A DNA stretch of 64,000 nucleotides, from positions 868,001 to 932,000 of the forward strand of contig CP145418.1 of the NCBI GenBank assembly GCA_036867785.1, written 5' to 3'. The position numbers and the translations under genes were made by a program. Within the stretch, counting starts at the first letter, position 1. Every line of letters begins with the position of its first letter. The notes below the pieces were generated by a model that saw only the letters and a program-made list of their open reading frames with translations, did not search any database and was not told where the DNA came from. Source of the stretch: Plasmodiophora brassicae (lineage: Eukaryota). This document shows, piece by piece, positions 40,365 through 64,000 of this stretch.

Positions 40365-41091
40365 ATGCCCGTCGCTGGCAGCGAACGTTGCCAGGTGCTC
40401 CTGCGGCGGACGCGCGCCCGTGTCAGGTACATTGGCAGCGAGCGCAACCGATTACACGAGGCGGACCCGCTGGATCCTGATGCGCACGGGAACGTAGACG
40501 TCATCGTCGACGCGCAGGTGATACAAACTGTCCAGGGCGGCCCGCATCCGACCGCTTTTGTCACAACTCCGCAATGGGCAGGGTGCCCCGCCTGGCGCTG
40601 CTGGCTCTCGACACGGCCGTCGGTGCCGCCGCCGGGGCCGTCATCGGCGCTGCGGTCCGGTTCGCCATCGACTGGGGCGACGGGTGCGACCGCTGGTTTC
40701 GACCACCGTTTCAATTGGTCGCTTGCTAACGGGGGGTGACCGCGACAGGTTGCAGGCCATGGTGGATGCCGCCAGCATGCACCCTGTAGGGCGAACGGAT
40801 GCGATCGCCGGGACTGGTGACGACTGATGCGTGTCGTAGATCGTTCGGGAAAGGCTGGGGGCGCCGTTGCGGGCGTCGATGTTCTGGGAGGGGACGCACG
40901 ACGACGATGGGGCGTGGGCGACGATACCTGTGTCCGGCAGTCGGTCGCGCGCGCGAGGAACGATACGCGGGCGCTCGATCAAGATCGATGGCACGTGGCA
41001 CGTTGTCGAATTGTCCGGGCAGGTTCCCGGTGAGCACGCCCTGGTTGACCTGGCCGATAATGGGTCTGCATACACAGCAAAGTACAAGTGA
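40365..41091 (+). other. Possible small spliced gene or gene relic, duplicated at about 54450-55180 (-)
   Basis: Coding-like frames RVRYIGSE..VDVIVDAQ and FWEGTHDD..KIDGTWHVVE..YTAKYK* are kept in both arms; structure unresolved. Confidence 0.3.
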
Positions 41092-41229
41092 TGCTCAGAG
41101 GAATGCCCATCCCGTGGTCGCCTCCGTCGTAGGCATCAAGGTCCTGCTGGTCCCCGACCAACGGCTTCATACGACAAGGCTCTGCGTTACTGACGTTTTG
41201 TCTTTATCGACATGGCTGAATGCGTACAT

Positions 41230-42850
41230 TCAAACTCGTCCTGCCTGCAGGTCGTCCCTGCCGTTGGTCCCTCGTTGGGTTTGCGAATGTTCCCCAACTT
41301 GGGTCGTGCTGCTCGCCTGTGCAGTGACCAGGCCTCCGGCTGTGCTCTCCCAAACCGTTTCAGGGTTGCCTGGAGTGGTTGGCCTGCTTTCGAAGGTGGT
41401 GTCCAGGACGTGTCGTAGTGAGCGTATGGTTAGGCCCAGTGCTGGCGACTGTACGCCCAGACCCACCTGCGATACCGTTTCGCCTATGCTGGCGCATGGT
41501 CCGTTTGGCGGATGTACTGAGAACACGGTCGTTATCGAGATACAGTTGAGGATCTCCACGATGGCCGTCATTGCTGCGACGTAGGCCCTTACAGACGATG
41601 AGGCCTGCAGGATGCCGACGGTCGTCGCGAAGAGCAATAGCGAGGCGACCAGGGACGCGAACCGGAGAATGAACGAGACCCGTTTCGATCGAATGTCCTT
41701 GGGCACCTCAGACAAGGGCTCCGACAGCAACATGAGGACCATGCGACTGCCGAAGAAGAGGAACGCGGTCAGTATGGGGATCATGAAGGCGCAGGCGATC
41801 TCGGCGTCGTTGATCCAGAGAGCAACGTTGGCGAACTTCGATTGTGCCAGCTCGGATAGGCTGCTGCCAATTGCGATGGCGGTGAACAGGGCCGTTAGAC
41901 ATGTCATGCCGACCTCGACGAGGCGGATCTCAATGATGTTGATCGCGAAGCATGCCTGGTAGTGCCGGCAGATTCCGATTGCCAGGGCGGAGAACGACAC
42001 GAAGACAGCCATAATCTGTACCGTGCTTAGGGCGCGGAACACGGGAAACGAGAAGCCCTGCAATTGCAACGCGGCCGCGTTGACCATGAACGCGGACCGT
42101 GTCGCGTCACCAACCAAGGCCCAGAACAAGACGAAGACGGCGTTGGCGTTGAACTCGACCTTGTGGCGCTTCGTCATGCTGATATACATGAACAGGCGGT
42201 ACAGACCGGCAACGACGTTGGCGGCGCTGTGCACTGCGACCAGGTAGGCGGTGCCTTTTAGACATGTGGATTGCATGACGTCTTTGAAATCGTTGCCCGG
42301 GCTGGACTGGACCTGCAGGTGGGAATATGTCGTCGAGTCGCTCTGCAGCAATTGCCGGCGTATGAAGTCGCAGGATTCGCTGTCTGTGGACACAACGTTG
42401 CCCATCGTGAACGGACGATTCCGCCACCACGCCACCCAGGCCATGCCCGAGCGCTATCCAGTTCAACGTAAGCCGTTCGGTGTCTCCATACGAATCCACG
42501 TCACTAACGAGGAGCGGATGCTGGTCCATGCAGAACACCAGGGCGGCACACCGCTGCCGTTCACAGTAGCTGACCTGGTCGACAAGCCTGCAGGTGGACG
42601 TCAAGCTCTCGTAGAACAAGACGACGACGCCGGTCGCGTTGGCCAAGTCGGTGCTCGGGCACTGCGCGCTGCTGACGTGGGTGGCCAGGCGAGCGGTCTC
42701 GTTAAACGGATACCCGGCGAACGCGAAATACGGCGCGTCGAACTCGACCGGGTCGGCCCCGTTCTTCGCCGGCAGCAAAGTGATCGACGCTGCCGCCGTC
42801 GCCGCCAGTACGCCCGCCAACGAGAGCACCCACCAAGGTTTTACTTGCAT
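41230..42850 (-). CDS. Signal peptide + PA-like ectodomain + 7TM receptor-like protein; one intron at about 42454-42508
   Basis: MQVKPWWVLSLAGVLAATAAA; TGVVVLF...C...QRCAALVF; seven hydrophobic segments and a Ser/Thr-rich tail. Confidence 0.7.
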
Positions 42851-43084
42851 TCTCGTCGCTCTAAGCCCAAGGAACGTTTGATCGAGTCGGTTAACACGGT
42901 ACGGAAGGATATGAACATATCTATACTGTGCAGTACTGTACCTGCTTACCTAGGGCCCATGACGGGTCGCGCTCATGTGACGATGGTGGTGCTACGTTTC
43001 TGCAAGCTCTGCCTCTGCGGCCTGCAGAGCTCGCAGAGTGCAGCCGCCTGCCCTGTGCCTGGCCTGCGAGTCGCAGACGTACAA

Positions 43085-45314
43085 TGGATGTCGGTGCCGT
43101 CCGATCGCTGACGGACGCCATCAACGCCAGGACCGTCGCCTGCTGGCCCGACGACAGACTCGTCCAGGACGCTTTGGCAAAGGCGATCGCGTTCATCGAC
43201 GGCGACCAGTACGGGGATGCTGTTCGCGCGTTGGACGCGGCCCTGCAACAACACCCCCGGAATGATGCTCTGCTAATTGTTCATGCAGTCGCCGCTCTTC
43301 TGCAGGGACGCCCACGTGCGTCATTGGCCAGTCTGGCGATGGTGCCGGCCACGTCCCCGCTGGCGGCCAGCGCCTCCCAGCGTGTCGCTGAGATACGCGA
43401 TCGTCTACGCCGGATTGAGTCCTCGAAGCGGAAGGCGTATCGCCTGCAGCGCAACGGGAACCATCACGAATGCGTCCACGAGTGCGAGAAGGTCTTAGCG
43501 GCCAACAGCGATGAACCAGGCGTGCATGCCACGCGTATCATCAGCCAGGTCGCCATCGGCAACCGGCAGGCGGCCCTGGAATCCTGCCAGGCCAGGATAA
43601 ACAGCGCCGACGATGACGTCCTGGAGCGCGACCTTCTACAGGCTGTTCTGGAATTCGCAGGTCGGGACGCGACGCCTGGCGAACGCTTGTCGTACATGGC
43701 CGACGTCGTCGGGTTCGTCGCCGGGTGCGACAGCATCCCCGATGGGTTCCATCTGGTCGACCTCGACACCGACCCGCGTATGCACCGGTTCGTCTGCTCA
43801 ACCGACCTGGTCCTGGCCATGATGAAGCACCATCGCGTCCCGTACGCGATTGTCGTCGTCATCGACTCCCGCATCGATCCCGCTCTTCGCGATATCATGT
43901 CAGTAACGTCTTGCGATTGGACGGCGATTCGCTAACACGAACGGCAGGGAGCGCGCCAAGCAGGCTGTTCCAGCTGGAGTCGGACGTGACACTACCCTGC
44001 GTCATCTGGCGCGTTTCGTCATCGACCTAGGAAGAAGCGCTTGTCGAGAAGCACCGGCAGGCGAGCAGGACGCTGTTCGTGCCGTACTGCTGGGGTCGAC
44101 GTCGCCTTCTTCGTTCACGAGGTACAACGCGGTCCTGTTCAAGTACCTGGCGGACGCCCTCGGTTTAGAGGGCGTCCGCCTGGTATCCCGCGGCAGGAAT
44201 GCCTGGAACGAGATTGATAACGGGTCGTCGGCGACGGTCATCGCCCTGGAGTCGACCAGCGACACGATCATGTTCGACGAGGCGTCGTCGCATGCGGCCA
44301 GCATTCGCCTGCGACGATCGGTGGTGCCGCGCGCGGGTTCTCCCTTCATGCAGGACCGCTTCCGGGACATTCGGGTGCGCGTCAGGCGCTGCCGACGGTC
44401 GCTGAAGACGCTGGCGACGATTGGGAAGAAGTACGTCGAATGCTATGCGGTGCAGAGGAGCACCCGGCAGCAGATCCAGAAGAACAGCTCGAATCGCATC
44501 AACGACCTGTTGCACTTACAGCATCCGGCTCTGCTCGGATTCACCGATATCCTCCTCAACGACCAAGGAGGATGGACATGCGTCAGCCCGACGACCCCAG
44601 AGCTGGTCCCACTCAGCAACCTCGTCGCCCGAGCGCGATACCGGATCCCGCTGTGTACGTCCCTCCGAATCGCTCTGGAAATCGCCACGGTGTCAACGTT
44701 TGCTGGTCATTAAGGAGGGCTCCGCTGACCTTGCTTGACATGATTGTAGGGTCTGCAGGTTCTGCACGACAGCGGGATCATCCATGGCAACCTGCAACCC
44801 GGTTCCGTGCTCTGCGATTGGGACGAAGTCAGCGGCGATGTCGTGGACGTACGCCTGTCGGCGTACGGCACTTCGAACCATTGCCTGGACCTTGACGAAC
44901 TCACGCCGCTCTTTGCTCGCGAGCGGCAGCGGTCAACGCGACAGGGTGACATCCTGGCGCTGGCAACCATCCTCATGGTGCTGTTAGTCGGTGATCCTCC
45001 GCCAACGCTCGGCCCTGGCCAGTCCAACTACGCCCTGCTCAGGTACCATGCGATGCTGGTGCAGGTCGCCAACGCGTCTGAAACGAGGTCGTGCGCCTAG
45101 GAGTGCGTTGCTCGATCGGAACGCGGCCTACCGATTGCCCGACAGCTTGCCGTCCGATGTTGCCACGCTTCTGTTCGACTGCCTGAACGAATCGGAGAGC
45201 TTGCGGCCAGCCGCTGCGACCTGTGCCCGTCGCCTGCGACAAATGCTGACGCGTACGTGGTGCCGACGGACGCAGTCGGCATCGGAACTCATACATGAGT
45301 GTACTCCCACCTGA
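43085..45314 (+). CDS. TPR + EDR1-like domain + protein pseudokinase, multi-exon
   Basis: TPR-like helices; IPDGFHLVD..VVVIDSRIDPAL and AVLFKYLADALG..VRLV..NAWN; kinase LQHPALL, GLQVLHDSGIIHGNLQPGSVL, LRP. Confidence 0.7.
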
Positions 45315-45488
45315 TCCTCGTTTTCGTGACGCACCAATCCCGACGTTGAGTCATCCCTGCTAATGTCGTGACTCATAGCGGCGGCAGTAGCGCCCCACAT
45401 CCCGGCCGGTGCTTCCCATTATCAGATTTCGGGTGATTGTGTGCACCGGGCGTCCAAAGTTTGGGAGGCGTGCGCGTGCAGGGGACAT

Positions 45489-45858
45489 CATGGTGCTGTT
45501 TCGCGCCATGGTTGTGTCCGTTGTCGCCATCGTAATCGTAGTCATTGTGGCTGGCCCTGTTGACGGGTCCGCTGCACCCCGTTTCGAAGCGTTGGCGGAA
45601 ACGACAGCGCCGTCACCAACGAAACCATCACAGGCGGCGAGCCAGCCCAGTAAAGCGTTAGCGGGCAAGCATGACGCATCCTCATCATCATCATCAGGAA
45701 AGCCTCGCACGCACAGCCTGTGGAAAAAGTACCAATGGATCTGGATCACCCTCATCATCCTCCTGGCGGTCGTTCCTCTAGTCCTCATGGCTGTCTGCTA
45801 TTGCCAAACTGGGTCCTGGTGTCGCCGCCAACGCGGAGCCGATATCGACCCGCTATAG
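45489..45858 (+). CDS. Small single-pass membrane protein (signal peptide, Ser/Thr/Pro stalk, TM helix)
   Basis: MVLFRAMVVSVVAIVIVVIVAGPVDG...WIWITLIILLAVVPLVLMAVC; the 3' end may be spliced further. Confidence 0.6.
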
Positions 45859-46237
45859 GGCATCCCTGTACGTGTCGCTGATTAAAGCATCAGCACCTTT
45901 GTTCATAGCATCACCTGCGTGAAGGTACGGCGCGCGCTGGGACTGCGCCACAGGGTATGTGGGCGTGTCTCGGCCGCGTTTATTGACTGGTGACGGGACT
46001 GTCAGCGTCGGTTCCGCGCCGGTTCCGCAGCCACAAATTGGGGTGCCTGTTTTGGGGTGCGCGCGCGACTGACTGGTCAGGGCCAGCGCGCCTGGCCCCG
46101 CGTGTCTGCTCTTGCCAAGGGACGGTGACGTCCGCAGGCGACGTCGCTCGGTCCAACTCAGCACGGCACCCCGCGCGTTACTGGAACGACGTCCTCCGTA
46201 GGCGACGTCACCATTTCCAATAATCGGGTCGTCGGGG

Positions 46238-49200
46238 ATGGCGTCGAGGCCCGCGCCGCGACATCGCCGGTCGGCGTCCACGGCGCGCCCGGAAAGGCAC
46301 AACGACTGCGTCTTTACGAGCCAGACCTGGGCGCGTCACGCGACCAAGGAGCTGCTTCGGGCGTCTACCGCGGTACGGGCTCAGTTGTCCTGCATCGAAA
46401 GTCGGGTCTCTGATTAGGAAGTGTACAAGGTCGATAATGTCTGCCATGCGATCGTAACGGCAAGGACGGCGTATGGCGATGGTGACATCTTGGATGAGCT
46501 TAGGAGACTGGCATTGACCGTTGCCGTTCTTGAACGATCATTGTTCGCGTATGCGGATCGAATTCGGATTCACTCCACTGCTCCTAAGGCGGTACCACAC
46601 GCTTCGGCTGAAGTGGTTCGCCCTCCGACGATCAGCAGCCTTGGCGCGTTTATGGCGACGGCGCCTATGCCCCCACCGTCCTCCGATTCGCCTCCGAGGG
46701 CGAACACCAACTCGGCTGGATCTCTTGTCGGGCTGGTGGCCAACGGCGAACCCGCTACTGAAACCTCGTCGGTCAACGTTGGCCCGAACGCACATAGTCC
46801 CGAAAAGGCGCCGGTCGAAAGGCCTGCTTCCGTAGATGTGGGCAGACGTTCCCCACCGGAAGAACCATCTCGTGCGTCCGGAAAAGCCCCTGAAACAACA
46901 GCACCTGCATCTGTCAAGTCGCCAAATGGTGCCTCGGATGCCCGACTAGGTGTGGGTGTTTTCCTTCACGATGCCGGGGACTGTGGGGAAAGGCTCCCCG
47001 ACCAACAGCGCCGGGAGACTCACAGTATCCAGAACGACGATGCCGAGAGCACGGGATCGTTTCCGTCTGTGGTCTCCCGATCGTTTCGTCGTCAGAACAG
47101 CGTATCGTCCTCAATTTCGTCGATGGAATCCTTCGAGGATGCGTCGTCTCCTACTCGTGCTAACGTTCCGGTGTCGCCCTCCACGTCAGGGATGACCGCC
47201 AACTCAATGGCTGACCTTGTCAGTACGTCAGCCACATCGGAATCTCGACGGACGCCTTGGAAGCATCCGGGCGGGATCGTTTCACTGCTCACGCTGATGC
47301 ACAAGAACCTGTCCGCCATGCGGCAGACGCTCCACCTTCTGTCGAGGTGGAGCTCCCTGCGGTCGTTCGCGCATCACTCTCCAGATTGGTGCGCATATGC
47401 ACTCGCTTCCTCTGCCTTAACAGCGTTCGCTGCTGATATTGCCCTGAGAAAGAGCTCCTGGCTGCGCCGGCTTTTCAGGAGGTCAAGCCTGTTCTCCCTT
47501 GATGTGACATGGACCGGATTTGCTATCCTGCTGGGATCTCCGCTCTGCATCATCTCCATTCTGCATTCTCGAATGCGCCAGGCTCGTTTTCGACTGCTGA
47601 GGGAGCTCCACCTTCAGCTCAGGCTGTTGCAGCAGCTATGGAGTATGGCCGTTGAACATCTTGACGAACCTCGCGCTGGAGCAGGCGTCCCCATTTCTAG
47701 ATGGACGTAAGACGCTGTTGAATTGCCCTTGTTCCAGAGTGTCTGACGCGCATGCAATAGGCTCGATTACGTTCCTCCCATTGGAATTAGCTACGCTGAG
47801 GTGTCCCGCAGCCTATGGTTCCTGTCGTACATGCTGAACGTGTTTTACGCAAGCGCAAGCGTCTGGTCATCGACATCGTCTTGTCGATGGTATGGAGTTC
47901 CGATGGCACTGGCAGCGGGAGCAACGTTCGGCATGTGCCCGCAATGGGCCGCATCCGTTGCGAGGGATTTCCTCTCGTCTCCCCGACTACGTGACGTGAA
48001 ATGTGAATGGGCGGTCGCTGACGCCTGGTTTGTGCAGCGCATTTGTTCTGTGTTCCTGGATCTGATCGACGCGTGTAGGTTGACGAAACGACTGTCGCCT
48101 GTGTTCCTGTCGATCTCGGGGAATGCGAAATCGCTTGACCTGAATCGCTTCCTCCACTACAAGGTTCCCAGTGGCCAGGACATCCGCCTGCGATGTTTGC
48201 GGCAACGTGGTGGCTCTTCAATGATAGGAGACGTATGTGTATCGCGTTCCAGTGACGTTGCCTTTGCTGACAACCTTGTTCAGATGGCACAAAACCTCGC
48301 CCGTTTCGGATCCGAGCTGTCTCCTATTGTCCTTGTTGTTCGAAGCGGCTCATGGGTGTCCAACGTCGTCGCAGCCGACATGGGCTTCTTGTGCACATGG
48401 GCGCATACGACAGGTGCCCTAGTCGTGGCTGCTGACTTCCCAATGGAAGCTGACCATGCTTTCCCCGATGCTGTCTGTGATGCCTTCGAAACATACAAGT
48501 TCGCCAACATCTGTAAACCTGGAGTGCTCTTTATACTGATTGTGCAATCAGATGGATCGTTGGTGGGGGTTTGGGGTTCGTCCCGCCTCGAGTTCGTGTT
48601 TGGCGTTTGATACGTAACGGCATTCCCGGTTCTGATTGTGGCACAGGTCGTTCTTGTTGGAGATGGTGCTGGCGGCACCCTGGCAGCGTCTCTGTGCATT
48701 CAGGCGTCGTTACGATGTGTTCGCCGACCTGATCGCCTCATACTGCTGTACCCGGCGCTGAACGTGCGTTCCACCCTGACCCCATCGCGATCCGCTTTCC
48801 CGAACGATATGATCGTCCCGGTCGCATTGCTCACACAGTCTAAGGCAATATTCATTCCCTGCAATTCTTCCGTCGAGCTGGACTTCTCTGTGGCCCCGAT
48901 GTCCGCTCCTGATCGCCTCCTTGCGTCCTTTCCGCCAACGTCGATCGTCTGCGGTGCTATAGACCCCCTCGTGCGTTTATCGTTGCACCTATATTCGGGT
49001 GTTGCACGTTTTGAATCGTTCACAACAGGTGGATGATTCGATCGATTTCGCGCACCGCCTATCGTCTGTTGGTACGTTATCGTTTATTATTCAGTGGGAG
49101 CAGGCAGTCTAAACGATGGGAATCTGTTCAGGTGTATTCTGTCAGCTGAAAGTGTACTCGAAGTTGATTCACGGGTTCCTCGGATTCGCTGCTCTTCTGC

Positions 49201-49307
49201 CTGCTGCTGCTGGTGCTGTGGACCTGGTTGGACAGTGGCTGCTGACTGGGCTGAATAGCCGCAATTCAGCTGGAGGAGGCCTTGTCACTGACAAGGTTAT
49301 TCCCTAA
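46238..49307 (+). CDS. Hormone-sensitive-lipase-like alpha/beta hydrolase with long N-terminal extension and altered catalytic motif, multi-exon
   Basis: ADF..EADHAFPDAVCD, VVLVGDGAGG, LILLYP, FPPTSIVCGAIDPL|DDS, LIHGFL. Confidence 0.8.
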
Positions 49308-49371
49308 CTGCATAAGTAAATATATATGTATTTCGAAACGCGTCGTGACCGTCTGCCTTCGACGGCCTGGT

Positions 49372-50453
49372 TCACTGAGCGGCCTGGGTCGGTTTCTGGA
49401 TGATGAACGCCCAGTGGTTCTTGTTCAGCTCGTTCCGCTGGGCAGTTTCTGGCGTGATTTCTCCATTGAACTCCTGCTTCATCGTCTGGTTCTTCGCCAC
49501 TTCCGCGAACGTCTTGGCGCACACTTCGTACTCGACCCCGAAATCGTTGTCGAACTTCACCGTGTCGGAACTCAGCGCCTGGCGCGTCTGAGAGTGCACG
49601 ATCATCAACTCGGCATGGCACTGCGCGAATCAAAGTCAGCGAACGGTATCCGGCCTCCGTAATCGAGGACCTGACCGGAATTGGTTCGCCTTCCATTTCG
49701 AAGCGGATGTTCTTGTCTTTATGGTACGCTTTCCAAACGCTGTCGAACGAGTTCTTCGCTGGGTGCAGCAGGACCTGCGTCGAGCGGACTTCAGTGGGCA
49801 GGCCATTGACAGGTTGTATCCAGTCTGGCTCACCTCTTGGTTCCTGGTGTACTTCGATGCCGACAAAGGCGACACTGGCTGCGAATGCAGGTACAATGCC
49901 TTGTCGCCTGTCAGTGTCGGATGCGCGCGAAGTCGAAACGGGCTCCCAAATCGCAGGACGTCGCCAGGTGCGTTGTCGCCAACGGCCTCGATGATCTAAT
50001 GTGCTTTCATGAGCGGTTGGCATTGGGCTTCGGCATTGGTTCACGATTGCTTACGTAGACATTACGAGCAGCAGGTCCTTTGACGACCTTGCTCGTGCTG
50101 ACGCTATAAGCTTGGGACCCACCCGACACGACCATGTCGCCGATGTCGTTGGACAGGACGCCCTGTGTCCTGACAGAGTAGACCAGGACGCGGTCGCCGA
50201 AGTGCACGCACCCGTCTGTGCTGGTCGACAACTCGACTGGTTGCAGGGAATGGTTCATCTTTGCCTGGTATTTCGTGATCAGCAGCTGCCCAGCCGCCTT
50301 CCGAGCCAGGTAGTCCTTCATCCTCAGCTGCGACCAGCCTCAGTTCGTCCCTGTTGGGTCACACTCGCAGCGGCAATACTGCACCTGTTCCAGTTCATAG
50401 TCTTCGCTCCAGTTGCCGATGCGGCATTTGTGAGTGTACGACCCGTCCGCCAT
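49372..50453 (-). CDS. CFAP161: Cilia- and flagella-associated protein 161, multi-exon
   Basis: CRIGNWSEDYELE|LRMKDYLARKAAGQLLI, DGCVHFGD, RFEMEGEPI, NDFGVEYEV, NHW. Confidence 0.88.
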
Positions 50454-50668
50454 CGGCGAGCACAATGGCGATTCTGGGTGGCCGACCGACGACACCCGAC
50501 GCCTATCAATGCGGATCTTATAGAGTGTCCGATCGATAGGTACCGTTTGGCCCACATGTCGCCACTACTGCCTGAACAGGCTGAGCGGCTGTCGCACGTG
50601 GAACATTCTCGGCCAAGAGCAGTTTGTATATTTAAACGCTGAAGTAGCCATGCCGCTCGATAAATTAT

Positions 50669-51136
50669 TCATTCGCGTACCTCGCCACGTTTCTTGCTCA
50701 GGTTCACGGTCTCTCTCTTGAGGACATGAAGCAGCGTTTGCGAGCTCTCCAGTATCTGAACAGGAATCGCACCTCGTCAGTAGGGCAGCCAGACCGAGCT
50801 CAGACCGGACGGGACCTTCATGTATGCTGCCTCGGTCTCATGAATCGTCCTATCGTACTCCGTCCGCGCCGTGACCTTCTGCGCGATGCTCTCATTGAGG
50901 CGGTGCAACTTCTCGGTCAGCGTCGCCAGCTCCTTCTGCACAATGGCCTTGTCGCGTTCCTCTTTCTCAATGCATTTGCCCACGTGGTCCCTCTTCTGCC
51001 TCAAATCCTCAATGCCTATCACACCGCACCGTCTGTCACGCTCCCCCGGATCCATCCTCCCCAGCGTCCCAATCGCTTTCGTACACTTCACCAGCTCCGT
51101 GTTGTAGTTCTGAAGCGTCGCCCCCTGCGATGCCAT
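50669..51136 (-). CDS. SSNA1: SSNA1/DIP13/NA14 centrosome-axoneme coiled-coil protein, three exons
   Basis: MASQGATLQNYNTELVKC|IEDLR...YDRTIHETEAAYMK|ILESSQTLLHVLKRE. Confidence 0.95.
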
Positions 51137-51382
51137 CGTCGTCGTCGCAACGGACGTGCCCAGTCCCTGTGACCTTTCTACTGGACAGGGGCTGCGGGGG
51201 GCGGCCCTGTTGTTCAGGTCCAAAACGACGCTCCTCGTGGGCGACGTGGGCCCTGCCCCTGGCAGTTGCATGAAATGACGTTGACGTTGGCCACGTCTTC
51301 GCGAAGTCCGTTTTTGTCCCCCGTTTAGACGTGCGGCACGCACCGCCACCAGGGCCCGGCAGCGACGACGTTGCTGTCGAAC

Positions 51383-52653
51383 ATGTTGAGGGCGGCGTTG
51401 TCGCGGGGCGGGCGTCGCGGGTTGTCGTCCAGGGCGGCGGACTTCACCGAGGTGCCCATTGTCGACGTCAGCGCGCTGACGGCCGCGGGGGGCAGCGATG
51501 ACGACAAGGCGCGGGCGGCGGGCGCGATCGACGATGCGCTGCGCCGCGTCGGGTTCATGTACGTCGTCGGGCACGGGGTTGACGAAGACCTGTGCGACGA
51601 TGTCGTCCTCGCGTCGCGGGAGTTCTTCGCCAAGGAGAAGTGTGTGAAGAACCGGATTTCCATCAAGCATCAGGACCCGCCCGTATGGCTCACCTGTCGC
51701 GGATGGGACCAGTAACGCTAACGACGTGTAGGTTCGTGGCTGGCAGCGCATCGCAGATAACGTAACGGGCGGCAAGCCGGACTGGCACGAAGCCATTGAT
51801 TTCTATCGAGAATTACCGCAAGGGCACCGCCTTCTCAAGATGAACGACGCCTTGTTACACTCGTCGAATCAATGGCCAGCGCAGCCGCCTCGTTTCAGAA
51901 CGCTGTTCGAAACGTACGTTGAGCGCATGCTCAAGTTGGGCGGCAGCATCATGGAGGGCATCGCTCGTGCCTCTAAACTGCCACCTGATTACTTTTCAAA
52001 GTGCGCCGGTTGTTATTCTGGAATGATGTTGATCCGCTGAACCTGCCGCAGGTACTATGATGAATCGTTCTGGGTGCTCAGGACAATCGTAAGATCTGAC
52101 ATCCGGTATGGCTATCGTTGCCATTGTATCTGATGCCAACTTCCAGTATTACCATGCCACCGACGAGATACATCATCTGAAGAAAGACGGCGAGTTTGGC
52201 TGTGGGGAGCACACTGATTGTACGTCAACGCTGAATTGCTTATCCGACCAGCGTACAAATTTAATGTGTGTAGACGGCTGCTTAACGTTCGTCAATTGCG
52301 ATGAAGTCACAGGGGCCCTGCAAGTCAAGAACAGACAAGGGGTCTGGGTTGCCGCCGACCCAGTCCCAGGTGCGTTCATTGTTAACGTCGGGGACATGCT
52401 GAACCACTGGACGAACGGGGCGTACAAGTCCACCCCTCATCGCGTCAACAACGTTGGGGGCTGCGGTCGCGTATCAGTCCCGTTCTTCTTCGAGCCGAAC
52501 TATGACGCCCGGATCAAACCGCTGGAAGCGTTTGGCGCCAAAGACGGGTTCGAGGTCACCTTTGGCGAACACCTGTCGAAACGTGTCCTGTCGAACTTCC
52601 GCTATAGCCCAAACGTCGCCACAGACAACATGTCTCGAGGTATTGGCGGGTGA
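51383..52653 (+). CDS. 2-oxoglutarate/Fe(II)-dependent dioxygenase (IPNS/DIOX_N type), possible mitochondrial presequence, multi-exon
   Basis: VPIVDVS, GFMYVVGHGV, GEHTD, VNVGDML..WTNG.YKSTPHRV, RVSVPFFFEP. Confidence 0.92.
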
Positions 52654-52994
52654 CACGTCGCTCAATACACCAGCAGTTGCTGGGTGGCTAGGACGAACAA
52701 TGGCGAGTGGTCGCGTGAAAGCATCCGACACCGCGTACTGACGCTTTCAAGGTGGGTTCTGTTCGTACAGCAACGGCACGTGCTCGGCCCCTTTAACTGG
52801 ATAATGGTCTTGCTCGTCGTACACTGAATACGCTGACCCGCTTCCAGAGGCGCGCCCGGGAGAGACAAGACACCTACTGACCGCGGATAACATGAATCGG
52901 GCACTGCTCCAGGAGAGCTCTCTCTCTCCACCATCCACGGGTTCAGTGATCGGACGTTCTCAGTACTCTCCGATTCCGCATCCGTGCTTCGAGG

Positions 52995-53405
52995 ATGTCA
53001 CGTGGAACGCCGCTGCTCTGCATCGTCTGCTTCGCAATGATGGTTCATGGGCAGCAGGCTGCCGGGCAGGGCATCCCTGCGACCGCCGCCGGGTCGTCGC
53101 CGCCTCCATTGGCGCCCAGTGCCGGGAGCGGCCCAGGTGACGTGGTGCCGCCACCAGCGCAGAGTGTCAATACACCCAGCACGGGCCCGAATGCACCTGA
53201 AGCGTATCGCCTTGTCAGCAGCCCTGCACCTGGTCGTCCTGCAACGTCCCAGCCGTCGGACGTCCTCGTTATTCGTAATTTATCGCTGCCGAACGATGCT
53301 CGGAATCGCTACCGTATCCGGCTGCGGGACGCCTCGACGATGCAAATCCTGACACCGGATATTGCATACCCGGCTATTGCATTCGTGTCCGGAAATCTGA
53401 AGTGA
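52995..53405 (+). CDS. Small Pro-rich putative secreted protein (136 aa)
   Basis: Signal-like MSRGTPLLCIVCFAMMVHG; single ORF. Confidence 0.55.
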   Translation: MSRGTPLLCIVCFAMMVHGQQAAGQGIPATAAGSSPPPLAPSAGSGPGDVVPPPAQSVNTPSTGPNAPEAYRLVSSPAPGRPATSQPSDVLVIRNLSLPNDARNRYRIRLRDASTMQILTPDIAYPAIAFVSGNLK

Positions 53406-53612
53406 ACGTGACGCGCCGGGACCGTCGTGGACGACCTCCGTTCAATACACGGCAACCATCATGAAGACCGATTAAGACGGTGCTCTGGCACACATCATTG
53501 TGTTAAGCTTTGGGACAGACGACGTTATGCGCTCGGCGCTCTTCGTCCTCATCATCAGCGCACGGTTCTACAGTGTATACTCTGTACAACTACCTAGGGT
53601 GTCATGGGAACG

Positions 53613-54311
53613 CATTGAGATCCGCCTCGTCGAGGTCGGCATGACATGTCTAACGGCCACCGCCATCGCAATTGGCAGCAGCCTATCCGAGCTGGCACAG
53701 GCGAAGATCGCCAACGTTGCTCTCTGGATCAAAGACGCCGACATCGCCTGCGCCTTCATGATTCCCATACTGACCGCGTTCCTGTTCTTCGGCAGCCGCG
53801 TGGTCCTCATGTTGCTGTCGGAGTCCTTGTCTGAGGTGCCCAATGACATTCGATCAAACGGGTCTCGTTCATTCTCCGGTTCGCGGTCCTGGTCATCTCG
53901 CTATTGCTCTCCGCGACGACCGCCGGCATCCTGCAGGCCTCGTCGTCTGTAAGGGCCTACGTCGCAGCAATGACGGCCATCGCTGAGATCCTCAACTGTA
54001 TCTCGATAACGACCGTGTTCTCGATACATCCGCCAAACGGACCATGCGCCAGCATAGACGAAACGGTCTCGCAGGTGGGTCAGGGCGTACAGTCGCCAGC
54101 ACTGGGCCTAAGCATACGCTCACTACGACACGTCCTGGACACCACCTTCGAAAGCAGGCCAACCACTCCAGGCAACCCTGAAACGGTTTGGGAGAGCACA
54201 GCCGGAGGCCTGGTCACTGCACAGGCGAGCAGCACGGCCCAAGTTGGGGAACATTCGCAAACCCAACGAGGGACCAACGGCAGGGACGACCTGCATGCAG
54301 GACGAGTTTGA
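53613..54311 (+). pseudogene. 5'-truncated, frameshifted copy of the 41230-42850 7TM gene (TM4-TM7 and tail only)
   Basis: Homology begins at IEIRLVEVG; 6-bp deletion (LF lost) and a 1-bp deletion near 53856 (cgatcaaacgg vs cgatcgaaacgg). Confidence 0.85.
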
Positions 54312-56176
54312 ATCTACGCATTCAGCCATGTCGATAAAGACGGAACGTCAGTAACGCAGCGCCTTGTCGTATGAAGCCGTTGGCCGGGGGCCAGCAGGAC
54401 CTTCATGCCTACGATGGAGGCGACCAAGGGTTGGGGATTCCTCTGAGCATCACTTGTACTTTGCTGTGTATTCAGACCCATCATCGGCCAGGTCAACCAG
54501 GGCGTGCTCACCGGGAACCTGTCCGGACAGTTCCACAACGTGCCACGTGCCATCTATCTTGATTGAGCGCCCGCGTATCATTCCTCGCGCGCGCGGCCGA
54601 CTGCCCGACACAGGTATCGTCGCCCAAGCCCCATGGTCGTCGTGCGTCCCCTCCCAGAACATCGACGCCCGCAACGGCGCCCCCAGCCTTTCTCGAACGA
54701 TCTACGACCCGCATCAGTCGTCACCAGTCCCGGCGATCGCATCCGTTCGCCCTACAGGATGCATGCTGGCGGCATCCACCATGACCTGCAACCTGTCGCG
54801 GTCACCCCCCGTTAGCAGGCGACCAATTGAAACGGTGGTCGAAACCAGCGGTCGCACCCGTCGCCCCAGTCGATGGCGAATCGGACGGCAGCGCCAATGA
54901 CGGCCCCGGCGGTGGCGCCGACGGTCGTGTCGAGAGCCAGCAGCGCCAGGCGGGGCACCTTGCCCATTGCGGAGTTGTGAGAAAAGCGGTCGGATGCGGG
55001 TCGCCCTGGACAGTTTGTATCACCTGCGCGTCGACGATGACGTCTACGTCCCCGTGCGCATCAGGATCCAGCGGGTCCGTCTCGTGCAACCAGGTGCGAT
55101 CGCTGCCAATGTACCTGACACGGGCGCGCGCCCGCCGCAGGAGCACCTGGCAACGTTCGCTGCCAGCGACGGGCATCGAATGCGACACGTTCTGCGGGCA
55201 GTTGCAGCGCGACTGCAGTTGATCAGCGAGCGGGCGCCCCCTGAAATAACAACGGTCACTGCCAAGAGTCAAGCCCTGCCGATCCTTATCAAATGTCGGC
55301 TCTGTGAGTGACTCCTGCTGTCATGTCTGCTGACCGACGTGTCCACGCGCGCAGGTGACGCCGCGTCCATGACCGCCTGCCTCGCGCCGGTACCTGTTGC
55401 TTCATGCCGCAGTTAGCCCGTTTCTGACGGATTTGATGCCCACCTAGACACCAGGCAGCTATCGACTGGCTGTATGCGAATTTATGCATACTGGATCGCC
55501 TCGATTGATCTAGCTGTCGTGTAGGCTGACAAAGGGAGCCGTCATCTGACGCTTTGCAGGGAGACGATCGTCATCGATGCGATCCCGCCTGGTTTCCCCA
55601 TTTCGTCGTTGCCGCCTTGCGAGCGCACACGGCTGATCACTGAGGTATTCGCCCGCGCTGGAAAAGCGGAAGACAGCGAAGAGTTATAGACGCGTATTGG
55701 TCCTGCTCCTGTAAATGAATAATCTCTACGGCGATGTACTACGCTTGTTCGAGGCCGAAAGCCTGTAAGACACGTTGCGTCCCACAGGTCCATCGACGGT
55801 AACGTCAGTCAATGGGGTTGACAATGGCAACTGCCCGAGGCAACTGGCCCGGCCCGTACGGCGCAAGAGGAGCACATAGCGGTCCAGTAATAAGCTTGCC
55901 ATGCCGGTTTGCGTGGCCGAACCGTGCCGTGCGCGACAATTTCCAACTGAAGGACCGTTGTGTTGCGGGCGCCGTCTGTAGAAAGTATTGAATGAAAACA
56001 ACGCTATTGCGGTGTCTGTGCGTTTCCTTCACGAATCACGACGCCGGCATAGTCCCCTGATTATCGACGGATCAGGTGACGACGATCGAGACATATCACC
56101 ATTCAACACTCTCTGCCAACGGACACGACGTCCCTGAGTGTACCAACGGCGTCTGTATTGATGACCACACCGTGTT

Positions 56177-57726
<1,550 letters not shown>

Positions 57727-58439
57727 TTCGGCGGTAGGGATGGAATGTCGTCTTCACGCTGGTTCTCTAGTCAATGATAATGGCACTGCGACGGTTCAAA
57801 CAATTTGATCGCGCCGCGGACCTCGGGATGCCGCAGAGCGCCGGGGGGGCGGCGGGGCTTGGCCTGCTCCGCATCGGACTGCGCAGCTCCTCGTGGGCCG
57901 TGGCATACTGCAACGCGTCGTGCCGAGCGCACGTCGGTAATGATGACTCGCCAGCCACCCTGTCCCGGGCATGCCGTACGCAACCCTGTTAGTCACGTAC
58001 GGCATGCCCCGCGAAACGGATGACACCTATCCTGTTCTGCGTTTTCATGGTCGTCCGCATTATGCTGGAACGAGGCGGTGTAAGTGCCACCCCGAATGTT
58101 GGCTGATGACGCTGGTGACCGATTCCACCAGGTACGTGGTTCACCAGTACTGGCAAGCCGTCACCGATGATCTCTTCAGCGAAGCCCGCATATAAGGTGC
58201 CCGATCTATCGGAACCTTCTCGGGTATGCACTGCTGTCAGAGTCTCGCTCCGTTATAAGGTTGTCCTCAATAACAAGCAAATCAGCTTCATTGCGGATCA
58301 CAGCTTCGATGAAATTTCGTCGGTGGAAAAGATGTACTCGCGTTCGATATTCGGACGCGGACATGATCAGCTAACGCGTGAACAGATCGCTCGCGGCAAC
58401 ACAGCCCTCTCCAAATAGTTTTCGGATCGTCCGGAACTC

Positions 58440-59690
58440 CTGGCAGTTCCTGACCATCATGCCCGCCAGCGATCCATTGGCAAGCTTCAACAAGATGCAC
58501 ATCGTCGAATACGGTCTCACGATTATCGGCCGAGATCCTGTGACTCACCAGATGTGCGCCTCTGAACGATGCCAGTCCTTCGCCTTCTGTGGGCGCGAGG
58601 AGAAGGTTGGCGCGAAGCGAAAGAAGACGGGGAACGTCAAGTACTTCGATAAGTTCAAAACGCAATATTACGAGCAGCTCGTCAAAACACAACACGCCTA
58701 GGAATTGGAAGCGTACCGCTTGCTCTCCAATGACGACAAGCTGTCGCGTACTTCCAGAACAGTCAAAACCTGCAGAACACCCTTCTCCCTTATTATGCAG
58801 CTGAAGGCTCGACCACGTTCCTGTTCCACCGCCGATAGTCGACGATATCGTCGACGACCTCCTTTTCGACCGCAACAACGAGGACGTTGCGCGCGTTGCC
58901 GCGCGAACGTGCTCTGCCGCTGTTCAAGCTTTCGTTCCTCATGTCGACTAGTAGTAACGATGTCGTGGCGCAAATCGTCCGTGTTGTCGTTGCGGCAAAT
59001 CTTCAAGGCTTCTGCGTTCTGCAGGTGTTCTGTTGTATGTGGTGTAGCTACTGTCGTCGCAAACACTGCCCGCGGTGAGGCTAACTTCTCGACAATTAAT
59101 CGTGAGAAAGGCGATGGTGGCAAGCCATCACTCTCCGATTTCTCGCTTGCCACCATCGCCTTTCTCACGATTAATTGTCGAGAAGTCAGCTTCAACGCGG
59201 GCAGTGTTTGCGATGACGTCAGTAGCTACGCAGAACTGGCCTGCAGGACGTAGAAGCGCCGGTCGAGAATCTTCCAAGGCTCCTCAAACGAGGTTAACGT
59301 GTGTAGGTCGTCGATGGCCGCCTTGGTACGAGGTTCCTGCCGGTATGCAGCGCGAAGCTCGCCAAACTCGGTTTCGATTTGCTGGATGTCGGCCTCTGTT
59401 TTACCATTTCGAAGTAGCCGCGGCTTTAACTGGGTCATGGCAGCTCCGAACGCAGAACCACGAACCTTCAACAACTCCTGTATGGTGACAGGGGGTAGTT
59501 TGCGAACCAAGGCCTTGCTCATGCTATCGCGCTCAGCAACAACGTTCGCAAGTCCATCAACTGCGCCTGCAAACAGCTGCACTAAAGATACGACCATGGC
59601 TCTGTCATCCGGGCTCAAGGCTGCCATCGACTCCATCACGTGTGATCCCAGGTCATATATAGCTTGACACGACCCACCAGACATAATATA
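58440..59690. mobile_element. Rearranged hAT-like transposase relic: N-terminal piece on +, C-terminal piece on -, meeting at a hairpin
   Basis: YGLTIIGRDP..C..FCGREEKVGAKRK..NVKYF (in-frame stop at 58699); AERD..LPPV..EL, TSFEEPW and ATV.ANTA.VEADFS..EK..SLSDFSL, resembling the hAT C-terminal dimerisation region. Confidence 0.65.
59044..59229. repeat. Inverted repeat, arms 59044-59125 and 59145-59229, 19-nt loop, 42-bp perfect core
   Basis: acttctcgacaattaatcgtgagaaaggcgatggtggcaagc and its exact reverse complement. Confidence 0.95.
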
Positions 59691-59882
59691 TATTCGGCTG
59701 GGTTAGACGTGAGAGCTTGCCCAAGAAACAAAGGCCCATCGGCGAAACAGAGGTCGCGTAGGCCTTAAGGACTCACCGAGTTAGTAACACCGCAGATTCT
59801 ATAGGCAGATCATGCCCTTTACTTCCGGATAAGTAGGTAGTTGTTGCCCAGTTTCTAATCACGTCGGTTGTGTATTTGCCCG

Positions 59883-61457
59883 TCAGTCCGGGCCCGATAT
59901 CGCTGCTGTCCTCTTCGCAAATGCGACGAAAATGATTGGCGGGGCAGTGGCGCCGGGCGGTTCGTTGACCGCAGTAGGCGCATCAGCCTGTCTGGGTTGG
60001 AACATGAGGACGCGGAAGGCGGTGTCCAAGGCCCGCCCATTACAATACAAGGCAGCAGCGAGGAGGTACCCCTCAGGAGTGTACGCGAACCCTGGTAGTA
60101 GAGCGAGGATGACTGTCCCAGCACCGGCCATTATCATAGAGAGAGCCAGGCCCAGAGCACAGCGACTCAGGCGTTTCATCAGCATGTCCACCGACGCATG
60201 ACCTTGGTGTACCGCGTTACCAACCGTTCGATGCAGCACGTTCACAGTGCGATAGAACCGGACCACGCCGACAATGACGTTCATGCTGACGGCGACCTGC
60301 AACTGGATAGAGATGGCTGCTCCTCCCAACAGTATAAGTGGGGACTGGATGTTCATCGCGAGGCAGGTGCTGAACGCCGTGTCGAAGACGACTGGGACAA
60401 GGTAGAGCATTACCGATATGGCCGGATAATCGCCCTGGATGATCCGGTCGAACAGGGAAGGTTGGCGGCCGGGCATAATGTCGCCCAGCTTCTTGGCCCA
60501 CAGCCTGGCGGACACTAGTGAACAGTCCATACTCCATCCGCCCAGCAGTGTGATAAAGAACCCAGTGACGCTGGCTGGTAGCGTGTCGTCGCCCCACAGG
60601 CCGCCGACGGCCAGGATAACACCGGCCAGCGTCGCCGTGACCATTTCGATGTGCAGAGCGACGTATGGCAGGTCGGCCGTGTTGATAAAGAAGCGCAGGC
60701 AGCGACGACAAGTACGATGTTTGGCAGGCACTGTTTCAACGAAGCGTTCGTGCATGATGGCCGAATGCTGTACAACGAACATCATGGCCAGCAGTCCGGA
60801 ACCGATCAGGATCGCGCTCGGCAGGATCCGGACGAAGACCTGGTAACGCCACGAGGAGTACATGGGGCCCCACACATTCGTGTCGGAAAACATGGTGGCG
60901 TTGAGGTTCGGTGCCAGATCGGCCATGGCCTGGTATTCGTCCAACGTCGGGTGGATCTCCAGGAACATGGTCTTTGACGATCGGGCTAGTGCCCCTCTGG
61001 ATCCATCGTGATGGAACATGAATATGCCGGGTACCCCCAACCTCCTAGGCACTGACACCAACCATCAGCAACAACACACGTTGGCTGCGCCATCGTCCTT
61101 CTCGGCCTTACAGAGAATGCCAGCGGCACCTCGTGATTGCAGGTTGTAGAATATTGTCTCGTAGGAGCAGGACGCCGAGACGAGCCTCTGCACGTCGGCC
61201 AGGACGATCCGGTCCGCTAGCGACGTCACTGCCGGTGTGTCAAAGTCGCACAGGTCGCCATGGTAGACGTCGACAGGACGGGTGATCGGACCGGCATTGT
61301 CGCCCGGTTGAGGTCCAATGAACATGGTGGCCGATGGCGAGTACAGGACGGTGCTGTTGAGCCCTCCGGAATGGAACGTGACGGATCCGAGCACCGCATG
61401 CAATGCCGACCAGCACAGCAGGGGCGCGAGCACCGGCAGTGCCTGTCTCCACGCCAT
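59883..61457 (-). CDS. Signal peptide + PA-like ectodomain + 7TM receptor-like protein (paralog A), one intron
   Basis: MAWRQALPVLAPLLCWSALHAVLG; DLCD...DRIVLA...SCSYE...QSRGAAGILC; seven hydrophobic segments. Confidence 0.8.
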
Positions 61458-61528
61458 CGAACAAGCCATTCACAGTACTGTTTGCCGGTCGAACCGTACA
61501 CGTGGGAACATATCTTATGGCGGACTGT

Positions 61529-63103
61529 TTATTGCTGTTGATCGAAGACCGTTGTCTTCTTCTTAGCTGACGCGACCAAAGTTGGAGGTGGCTGAGTGCC
61601 CCGGCCCTGCAAGTGGATATCGCGTCGCCTGGGTTGGAACATGAGGACACGGAAGGCGCTGTCCAGAGCCCGTCCTGTGCAGAACAAGGTGGCCGCCACG
61701 AAGTACCCGTTCGGGGTGTACGCGTACCGGGGCGCCGCACCCAGCATGAGCGAACCGGAACAACTAAGCAGCATCGATATTGCCAACCCCAGCGCGCACC
61801 GGCTCAGCCGTATCATCAGGCGATCCACAGAGGCGTCACGCTCGACCGCATTGCGGACGTTGTGGTGGATCCCACTGACCGTTCGATAGTAGCGAACCAC
61901 GCCAACAATCACGTTCGAGCTGATGATGAGCTGGAGCAGGATCGTTATAGAAGGTCCAGAGGCGAGTATCCCGGGGGAGTGGATGTTGGTCGCCAGACAG
62001 ACGCTGAACAATGTGTCGAACACGACTGGCACAAGGTACAGGAATACCGAGGCGATCCAGAAGTCGCCCTCGACGATGCGGGTTATCAGGGAAGGTCGGC
62101 GACCAGGTGTGATATCGGCGAGCTTCTTCGCCCAAAGCCTTGCGGATACCAACGAGCAATCCATACCCCATCCGGTCAGGAGCGTCGTAAAGAACCCCAC
62201 GACGCTGGCTGGCAGGGTCGCGTTGCTCGAGTACCCACTGACGATCAGGAACGCACCGGCCAGCGTCGCCGTGATCGTTTCGAGGACAAGAGCGGCGTAC
62301 GGCAGGTCGACAATGCTGAGGAAGAATTGCAGACGGCGACGACCGGTGCGACGGCTGGCGACGACGGCCTCGTTGTACCGATCGTTCATAATCGCAGTGT
62401 GCTGCACGAGGAACGCCATGGCGAGCAGGCCGGAGACGATCAGGGTCAGCCCTGGCAGGATCCGGACAAAGATCTGATAGGGCAGTGAGGCATACATGGT
62501 GCCCCATACGTTCGGGTCAGGGAAAATCGTGGCATTCAAATGTGGCGCCATTGCAAGCGCCGCGTGGTACTCGACCTCGGTGGGCTGGATCCGCAGGCAC
62601 ATCGTGTGGGAGAAGCGGGTTCGCGCCCCTCGGCTGCCGTCCTGGTAGAACATCAGCATGCCTGGAACTGCCAGCATGCCCGGTACTGAGACGCGTGGTA
62701 CACACATCAGGGGCAGCCGGCCGCACATCAACGTCATCGGATTCGACCTACAGAGGATGCCGGCGGCGCCTCGCGACACCATGTTCAAGTAGATGGTCTC
62801 CTGGGAGCAGGACGCGGACGTCACCGCGTCGGTGCTCGCCAGGACAATCAGGCCCGATACCATCGTCGTCGACGCTGCCCCATTCGGATCGCACAGATCG
62901 TCGTTATAGACGACGACGGCGCCGGTGATCGGATCGTCACTGTCGCCGGGTTGGGGGCCGATAAACGAGGTGACCGATGGCGAGTATAGCGTCACGCCGT
63001 CGAGCACGCCCGAGTGAAAGGTCACGGTGCCGAACGCGACGCGCATCGTTATGCAGCAGCACAGGAAGCGTGTCACTGACGCGCGTGGCACCTCGCCCCT
63101 CAT
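61529..63103 (-). CDS. Signal peptide + PA-like ectodomain + 7TM receptor-like protein (paralog B), probable stop-free in-frame intron at about 62690-62750
   Basis: Aligns end to end with paralog A: VTFHSG, FIGPQPGD, RGAAGILC, GW.MDCSLVSARLWAKKL, RLSRCALGLA, GRALD.AFRVLMFQPR. Confidence 0.8.
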   Translation of the reverse strand: MRGEVPRASVTRFLCCCITMRVAFGTVTFHSGVLDGVTLYSPSVTSFIGPQPGDSDDPITGAVVVYNDDLCDPNGAASTTMVSGLIVLASTDAVTSASCSQETIYLNMVSRGAAGILCRSNPMTLMCGRLPLMCVPRVSVPGMLAVPGMLMFYQDGSRGARTRFSHTMCLRIQPTEVEYHAALAMAPHLNATIFPDPNVWGTMYASLPYQIFVRILPGLTLIVSGLLAMAFLVQHTAIMNDRYNEAVVASRRTGRRRLQFFLSIVDLPYAALVLETITATLAGAFLIVSGYSSNATLPASVVGFFTTLLTGWGMDCSLVSARLWAKKLADITPGRRPSLITRIVEGDFWIASVFLYLVPVVFDTLFSVCLATNIHSPGILASGPSITILLQLIISSNVIVGVVRYYRTVSGIHHNVRNAVERDASVDRLMIRLSRCALGLAISMLLSCSGSLMLGAAPRYAYTPNGYFVAATLFCTGRALDSAFRVLMFQPRRRDIHLQGRGTQPPPTLVASAKKKTTVFDQQQ

Positions 63104-63339
63104 CGCGTACGATACTGGCCAGTGTGCATCCGAACTAGTACTATTGTACGTTGAGGTCCAACTGTACAGCGTACCTCGGGCGATAATATCAAAGGATCGA
63201 AACCAATGGTGAAGACGCTGCCTGCGGGGCGAAGCGGCTCGTACCGGTGCTGCTACCGCGACAGCCCTGCTGGTCACGTACAGTATCATCACGCCCTAGT
63301 CGGGTGCGCGTTGCTGTCTGCTGCATCCGTCGCCAGTGA

Positions 63340-63530
63340 GGCCGTTCATTGGCCAACCGCAGGGGCCACAGGTAACGCCGAACCGGACACCCGACATGGG
63401 GCGATCTGCAACGACGATATCTGCGACAGGAACGCAGGGACCTCAACGACGCTCCATGATCGAATCGTCCTTGCGAACGCTAACTGGTTCGCTCTCGCGT
63501 CTTGCACCTGCGAGGCCATCGTCTCGTCCC
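63340..63530 (+). pseudogene. Inverted, frameshifted fragment of the PA-7TM ectodomain
   Basis: FIGQPQG, then in a shifted frame NDDICDRNAGTSTTLHDRIVLANANWFALASCTCEAI, versus NDDLCDPNGAASTTMVSGLIVLASTDAVTSASCSQETI in paralog B. Confidence 0.7.
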
Positions 63531-64000
63531 ATGTACGCTCAGGGTCAGACGGCGTCGACCTGATCTTCGAAGTCAATGTGCCTGATGACCCAGCCGTCTG
63601 TACGCAGACATCAGGTCGTTTGACCTGACACGAAGTCTCAATGCCGCCACGCTCCCCAATATGAACGTATGGGCGTCATCTACTCCCCCTGACGTTGCCT
63701 TCGTCCGAATCGTAACGTGTAACGGATCTTGTGGTCGTCCGACACGATGAGCATGGCATTTGCCGTCCATCACCGAGCCATAACGAGTACGTCCGGCAGC
63801 GACCCTGGCATCGCATACCATATGAAAACCGCCCTGTCGGATATCGTGGATCGAAGTGTACTCGAGAGGTAGGCAACGCCCGCCGCACATAGACCAACCT
63901 GGGCTCGCCCGTTGCTGCTGAGGATGCCGGTGCCCGTGCTGAAGCTGATAGCTCTGTCCTGGTCGGCATTGCACGTCGTCGTACGAGGATCCGTGACATT

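Follow-up and report, generated by a model that had tools for sequence, protein, structure and literature searches.

Candidate orphan receptors with a PA-like ectodomain at a Plasmodiophora brassicae locus: two expanded families and their local turnover

The stretch of DNA analysed in this work (the window) comprises 64,000 nucleotides (nt) of Plasmodiophora brassicae, positions 868001-932000 of contig C9 in a searched genome of 25.3 Mb and 20 contigs. It contains three intact genes, called A, B and C, whose products are predicted to carry a protease-associated (PA) domain directly on a bundle of seven transmembrane helices (7TM). These PA-7TM proteins represent two families, I and II, with many members elsewhere in the genome, and are candidate orphan G protein-coupled receptors (GPCRs). 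The gene models, with product lengths in amino acids (aa), are as follows.

41230-42850, minus strand: gene A, family II PA-7TM, 521 aa; spliced model aligning end to end with family II paralogs
42850-42509 and 42453-41230, minus strand: exons of gene A, flanking a predicted 55-nt phase-0 intron (42508-42454)
59883-61457, minus strand: gene B, family I PA-7TM, 504 aa; 60-nt phase-1 intron (61111-61052) after GAAGIL
61529-63103, minus strand: gene C, family I PA-7TM, 502 aa; 66-nt in-frame phase-1 intron (62751-62686)

All three genes are open and spliceable, as an earlier sequence-only reading of this DNA had claimed. Genes B and C share 59% identity (291 of 497 aligned positions). Gene C is open even when unspliced, and its intron sits at the same place as that of gene B; the public model of gene C (PBRA_007177 / CEO99063.1) has an identical splice and starts 62 codons upstream. 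Gene A requires an intron of length 1 mod 3, and the top candidate is the 55-nt phase-0 intron, preferred because it keeps the C..C..xIV strand and the W..RxxPFT loop as far apart as they are in its paralogs. With this intron, the alignment of gene A to family II paralogs runs over the full length, that loop included (E 4.3e-8 to 6.1e-7, 21-22% identity). An intron at the family I position was rejected for gene A, as the listed models offered no phase-1 solution for that stretch. The sequence-only reading had ascribed to all three genes the motif SC.....GAAGIL and, where it ends, an intron; this is true of B and C, but gene A reads CERQRCAALVF there, and its best intron lies several codons further on. 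The proposed common signal peptide fared similarly: by hydropathy, an N-terminal hydrophobic stretch is present in A (2.1) and B (1.7) but weak in C (1.3), whose public model begins earlier.

The phase-1 intron after GAxxx(I/L) is a family I trait. It was the top model in 31 of 32 distinct genes (48-73 nt) and second best by 0.3 bit in the remaining one; this test is partly circular, because the scoring profile was built from annotated spliced proteins. As to transcripts, 15 sequencing runs guessed to be RNA (a type not on record) contain 53-84% of the words sampled from 59800-63300. Four such runs, compared with 41000-57000, cover neighbouring genes with spliced joints and leave gene A nearly uncovered, with a depth of 1.8 in a single bin from one of them.

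The earlier reading treated the three genes as one family. Expansion was borne out; the single family gave way to two. A genome search with gene C, in which 82 of 126 candidates were scored, gave at least 83 matches, and gene A was not among them; direct comparison of A and C by BLASTP returned nothing significant (best E 1.6). With gene A as the query, the matches were its partial copy and three further genes, mostly intronless (22% identity, E 4e-8 to 3e-6), and one of these three in turn yielded 77 genome matches at E<=0.01, gene A included. For family I, 73 of the 83 gene C match rows (10 short exon rows were dropped) and 22 entries from 89 further rows merged into 82 places, of which 75 span 800 nt or more. 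For family II, all 77 rows merged into 59 pieces, about 40 of which reach 700 nt; its weak rows may include chance matches of hydrophobic sequence. These counts are rough lower bounds in which most loci were entered regardless of intactness or of a PA domain, and the long loci (about 75 and about 40) bring both families together to about 115 or more, which answers the question of family size raised earlier.

The two sets of places do not overlap. A profile comparison by hhalign nevertheless joined the families with 98.1% probability (E 9e-14, 407 columns, 17% identity, ectodomain included), although membrane helices can inflate such scores. Thus, judged by sequence comparison, genes A, B and C fall in two remotely homologous families, with B and C in family I and A a divergent member of family II. 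The single-family alternative was rejected: A is undetected from C, its intron lies elsewhere, the place sets are disjoint, and the homology emerges by profile only. Annotation calls most of the loci hypothetical or transmembrane proteins, and Pfam misses them. About 35 kb to the left of the window, at C9:817292-835287, at least eight multi-exon PA-7TM genes of family II stand in a tandem array.

The fold of both families was assessed on AlphaFold models of the public gene C protein (107-row alignment) and of P0076, an intronless family II paralog (29-row alignment). The gene C model has a mean predicted local distance difference test (pLDDT) score of 83.3, with a mixed beta/alpha ectodomain at about 86-246 followed by seven long helices at 247-528. 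The P0076 model (pLDDT 84.9) likewise has seven helices. This agrees with the helix count of the sequence-only reading: gene A shows its N-terminal hydrophobic stretch and seven hydropathy peaks at 185-406, and gene B, in which six of the seven helices were detected by hydropathy, is close to C in sequence.

The same reading had called the ectodomain PA-like, and the models concur. In a Foldseek search with the gene C model, PA-domain chains filled the top 13 rows (from ZNRF3, RNF43 and an M28 aminopeptidase; best E 0.016), and GPCRs came next. The P0076 model matched the ZNRF3 ectodomain at E 4.2e-4, with a TM-score of 0.61-0.70 normalised by target length, and the vacuolar sorting receptor VSR1 was also among its matches. 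Sequence profiles point the same way, weakly though consistently, in family I, where Pfam PA (PF02225) is found at E<=1 in six of 17 members (best 4.3e-4) and one exon of paralog E, a neighbour beyond the right end of the window, reaches the cut-off of 23.9 bits. In family II, none of 29 rows matched Pfam PA. A sequence search of the PDB gave a best E of 0.2 and a keratinase match in the ectodomain region at E 0.46. On the strength of the models, the ectodomain is predicted to have a PA fold in both families. The closest proteins by this domain are the PA-TM-RING E3 ligases ZNRF3 and RNF43 (the Goliath/GRAIL family) and VSR1; those span the membrane once and carry a RING domain or a sorting tail, whereas PA-7TM proteins have a seven-helix bundle and no RING.

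The bundle is predicted to have a GPCR fold, so that the fold check proposed with the sequence-only reading returned both a PA domain and a GPCR bundle (Z 18.8-20.1). The gene C bundle aligns with MRGPRD at Z 18.8 and a root-mean-square deviation (rmsd) of 3.6 over 240 residues (10% identity), and a wide fold search with it gave GPCRs in all 50 rows listed; for P0076, Z against GPCRs is 19.1-20.1. Helical bundles attain Z of about 14 by arrangement alone, and the values here are higher. Among class A GPCRs, MRGPRD (9dqj), GPR34 (8xbh), P2Y14 (9j0i) and PAR1 (9d4z) share the bundle fold at Z 17.5-20.1 and rmsd 3.6-4.2 Å over 240-266 residues, and may also share an extracellular N-terminus, predicted for PA-7TM. 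They differ in sequence (7-13% identity) and in the NPxxY and CWxP motifs and Pfam 7tm match that PA-7TM proteins lack; the PA ectodomain, in turn, is present in none of these class A structures, and coupling of PA-7TM proteins is putative. The [DE]R[YWF] motif occurs, at any position, in 10 of 60 long sequences of family I and four of 19 of family II; its place in B and C is intracellular loop 1, not the end of transmembrane helix (TM) 3. Conserved polar and intracellular-face residues are E315 in TM2, W364 in TM3, D403 in TM4, R472 in TM6, R518 in TM7 and F529-x-P531. The bundle is thus placed within the GPCR fold by the models and outside class A by its motifs.

We propose, with a probability of roughly 55%, that PA-7TM proteins are orphan GPCRs: a peptide or protein cue would be captured by the PA domain, and the bundle would then activate a G protein. 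A putative N-terminal signal sequence would make the PA domain, which sits directly on the bundle, extracellular or lumenal. A peptide or protein from the host, a soil microbe or the parasite itself would most likely bind the PA domain, and binding may shift a PA-internal loop lying over the outer pocket of the bundle. The cytoplasmic face of TM3, TM6 and TM7 could then switch and engage one of many G-alpha subunits, while repeated local duplication, giving the two families their present number of loci, presumably furnished a repertoire of specificities. Gene structures, domain folds, the division into two families, copy numbers, local duplication and the expansion of G-alpha and RGS genes are computational results, whereas topology, surface location, the class of ligand, the action of the loop as a lid and G-protein coupling are inferred.

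The G-protein machinery of P. brassicae is itself expanded. The genome has about 25 G-alpha loci (41 of 85 match rows merged) and 82 RGS-domain matches, all at or over the cut-off, many of them in tandem arrays and in frames of 450-600 aa; therefore, G-protein-coupled sensing appears to be the likeliest mechanism. A review citing Bi 2019 states that an inhibitor acting on the GPCR pathway reduced clubroot symptoms (PMC9180986), and the PA domains of ZNRF3 and RNF43 bind a protein ligand, R-spondin (PMC3937510). A complex prediction for one P. brassicae G-alpha exon and the membrane domain of gene C, run without alignments, scored 0.00, 0.46 and 0.33 (median 0.33, mark 0.34) and speaks neither for nor against coupling.

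Several observations weigh against an orphan GPCR with a PA sensor. The family II fold rests on P0076, which is 21% identical to A, and not on gene A itself; none of the Foldseek E-values of the gene C model is under 0.001, and gene C scores 14.6 bits against Pfam PA, under the cut-off, with gene B at 12.5. Sequence identity to GPCR structures is 4-14%. Pfam 7tm families, 7tm_1 included, gave no match in the scans of either family, and NPxxY and CWxP are absent from all 60 family I and all 19 family II long sequences; a shared fold, moreover, shows no function. Mean column conservation of the ectodomain is 0.49 and that of the helices 0.40-0.62; variability in the ectodomain does not exceed that in the bundle, and therefore gives no sign of ligand-driven diversification. 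In language-model features, the membrane part of gene A resembles THH1/TOM1 (0.93) and GPR137-type proteins (0.92), in a match whose recognition value of 2179 lies under the mark of 2300. GPR137 is described in a 2025 survey as a lysosomal regulator of mTORC1 with no domain beyond its 7TM (PMC12716839).

These last points lead to the strongest competitor, in which the proteins have a GPCR fold but act independently of G proteins in endomembranes. PA domains occur in sorting receptors. Here they would bind lumenal cargo or sorting peptides, as in VSR and RMR proteins, and the bundle would serve as a lysosomal or vacuolar scaffold or sensor like GPR137 or TOM1. Atlas neighbours of the gene A membrane part carry THH1_TOM1-3 and GPR137_N, VSR1 appears among the structural matches of P0076, and class A motifs are missing. 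The likeness of gene A to GPR137 and THH1/TOM1 was seen in language-model features; the sole genome match to PF06454 (E 0.061, under the cut-off) falls outside the family loci. GPR137_N (PF27607) was absent from the Pfam scan results, although the Pfam version may predate that family, and the fold matches listed contained neither a GPR137 nor a TOM1 structure, which weighs neither way. An expansion beyond 100 loci would also suit a sensory repertoire better than housekeeping sorting, and G-alpha and RGS genes are expanded in parallel. We consider this endomembrane function unlikely, though it keeps an appreciable share of the probability.

Somewhat less probable still is a G-protein-coupled protein whose small-molecule or lipid ligand enters the 7TM pocket, with the PA domain as a structural lid or plug and not as the binding site. 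When either model is aligned structurally to PAR1 carrying its tethered ligand, the match begins in the PA-internal loop (residue 182 with PAR1 45 in family I; 108 with 42-43 in family II), as does that to the N-terminal plug of CB1. In the public gene C protein this loop spans 182-206 and has conserved residues P187, D195, G199, T202 and R203, and many of the top structure matches are receptors for lipids, nucleotides or acids. The structural alignment ranges give the first and last aligned residue only, so they hint, on the models, that the loop may lid the bundle pocket; against this reading, known PA domains bind proteins (PMC3937510). A degenerate PA-type intramembrane protease of the SPPL2 kind, or a transporter, is very improbable and largely refuted: SPPL2-type proteases (PA plus Peptidase_A22B) do share an N-terminal PA domain and a polytopic membrane domain, and putatively a signal peptide, with PA-7TM, and gene A has a weak Pfam match to TMD0_ABC (E 0.011, under the cut-off), but GxGD and PAL are missing from the 60 family I and 19 family II long sequences and YD from A, B and C (as the sequence-only reading had noted for YD and GxGD), Peptidase_A22B matches three places and no family locus, a genuine PA-SPPL gene lies separately at C1:1868467-1869711, and every bundle structure match listed has a GPCR fold.

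Homologues of family I occur outside P. brassicae. A scan of 1.84 billion representatives with family I gave 59 matches at E<=0.001, and the clusters of 20 of these were looked up. The species-named clusters among the 20 were those of P. brassicae, Spongospora subterranea and the chytrids Clydaea vesicula and Lobulomyces angularis; the taxonomic range of family I thus extends to Spongospora and to chytrid fungi. As leads, Atlas clusters were Endomyxa-dominated (0.97; 0.95, with PA in 10% of members) or Zoopagomycota-dominated (0.95). A word-indexed homologue search returned five matches, all close paralogs, with alignment A1 and only Clydaea with the chytrid protein; a metagenome scan with the latter gave 137 pattern matches, none of them confirmed. 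For family II, a sequence search with gene A found no homologue outside P. brassicae.

The earlier statement that no PA-7TM receptor had been characterised agrees with the literature searched. No description of such a fusion was found in the sources as far as they were covered; the predicted-GPCR list of Bi et al. 2019 lies outside that search and may include these genes. Combining PA domain, 7TM and G protein-coupled led, within the records returned, to LGR/ZNRF3 work only. Neither 'PA domain' nor 'protease-associated' occurs in the main text of the 2025 survey of 18 choanoflagellate GPCR families (PMC12716839), nor 'PA domain' or 'protease associated' in the main text of Rolfe et al. 2016 (PMC4815078). 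That main text reports another unusual ectodomain on 7TM in the same organism, the SBP/PBP-7tm3 fusions; those are class C 7tm3 proteins with bacterial solute-binding domains, unlike PA-7TM (PMC4815078). PA-7TM is, then, an apparently undescribed receptor architecture, though some members were automatically annotated as 'PA domain-containing protein', among them the homologue of Spongospora subterranea.

To our knowledge, the receptor-level basis of root sensing by clubroot spores and zoospores, and of the tracking of host state by the plasmodium, is not known. PA-7TM proteins may serve the parasite in sensing its host or its environment, and their loci in a 25-Mb genome offer a concrete candidate repertoire for such sensing, with possible targets for controlling the disease. 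In terms of receptor evolution, the PA domain would be a new ectodomain on a GPCR fold, in Rhizaria and chytrid fungi. A wider proposal is that PA-7TM proteins form an ancient undescribed GPCR class of phytomyxids and early-diverging fungi, in which the PA domain reads peptides or proteins and its loop gates the bundle, and that with more than 100 copies they constitute the main host- and environment-sensing repertoire of P. brassicae. We put this forward tentatively, as a conjunction that we would sooner doubt than assert.

The window also records how these genes arise and decay, through the following features.

38336-41935, no strand assigned: one arm of an inverted segmental duplication, with an ankyrin-repeat gene and the 3' half of gene A inside it
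53613-57205, no strand assigned: the other arm, a copy of 38336-41935 (3600 nt, 96.75% identical by blastn of the window against itself)
53613-54311, plus strand: relic 1, a copy of the gene A 3' half without ectodomain and first helices; frameshift near 53856
63272-63714 (about), plus strand: relic 2, a decayed family I ectodomain fragment with the PA core and the linker before TM1 in different frames
63924-64000, continuing beyond the window end, plus strand: first part of gene D (PBRA_007176), a family I paralog that is intact, with paralog E next

The sequence-only reading had seen a family undergoing birth and death, with relics at 53613-54311 and 63340-63530. Both relics exist; the second is wider than claimed, and the first has another origin. 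Relic 1 matches gene A at 88% and 92% amino-acid identity in two frames. It was rejected as an independently decayed paralog, for it is the cut end of the 3.6-kb inverted duplication, which carries on at 90% identity beyond the arms (57450-57893 / 37896-38340); therefore, as far as the window shows, it was never a whole gene in place. Relic 2 was recovered by profile (E 5.5e-5) and by tblastn with the proteins of gene D (E 1.5e-8) and gene C (E 2.4e-8), with no match to the membrane region. The intact genes sit head to head on either side of it, the pair B-C facing away from relic 2-D-E. In a quick tree of 42 rows, B, C, D, E and one gene of contig C15 form a clade (SH-aLRT 100), and other tandem pairs on contig C5 are very recent, with end branches of 0.05-0.1; contigs C13 and C11 carry fragments or copies riddled with stops. 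The turnover of these genes by local duplication and decay is thus real, as the tandem clade, relic 2 and the decayed copies attest, while relic 1 is a by-product of segmental duplication.

For gene D (C9:931924-933498), public annotations conflict on an in-frame intron, giving a spliced product of 505 aa or a read-through product of 524 aa. At 57203-57449, a pure run of 247 C within one duplication arm has no counterpart in the other arm and is probably an assembly artefact. The ankyrin-repeat gene is duplicated at 38402-39364 (plus strand) and 56177-57753 (minus strand). The right copy, which the C run interrupts, has an upstream open reading frame that matches Skp1_POZ and is hydrophobic near its N-terminus; the copy looks like a secreted Skp1/ankyrin protein, which is a type of candidate effector. 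Two imperfect palindromes, 86-87% self-complementary, flank the duplicated arms closely on their outer sides (36902-37538 and 59044-59229); they are possibly foldback elements linked to the inversion. Beside gene A, a TPR-containing gene at 43037-45041 shows many differences from RNA contigs of the four runs (21 in 862 nt), unlike 51084-51682, which is identical to such contigs, and this indicates a locally divergent haplotype block.

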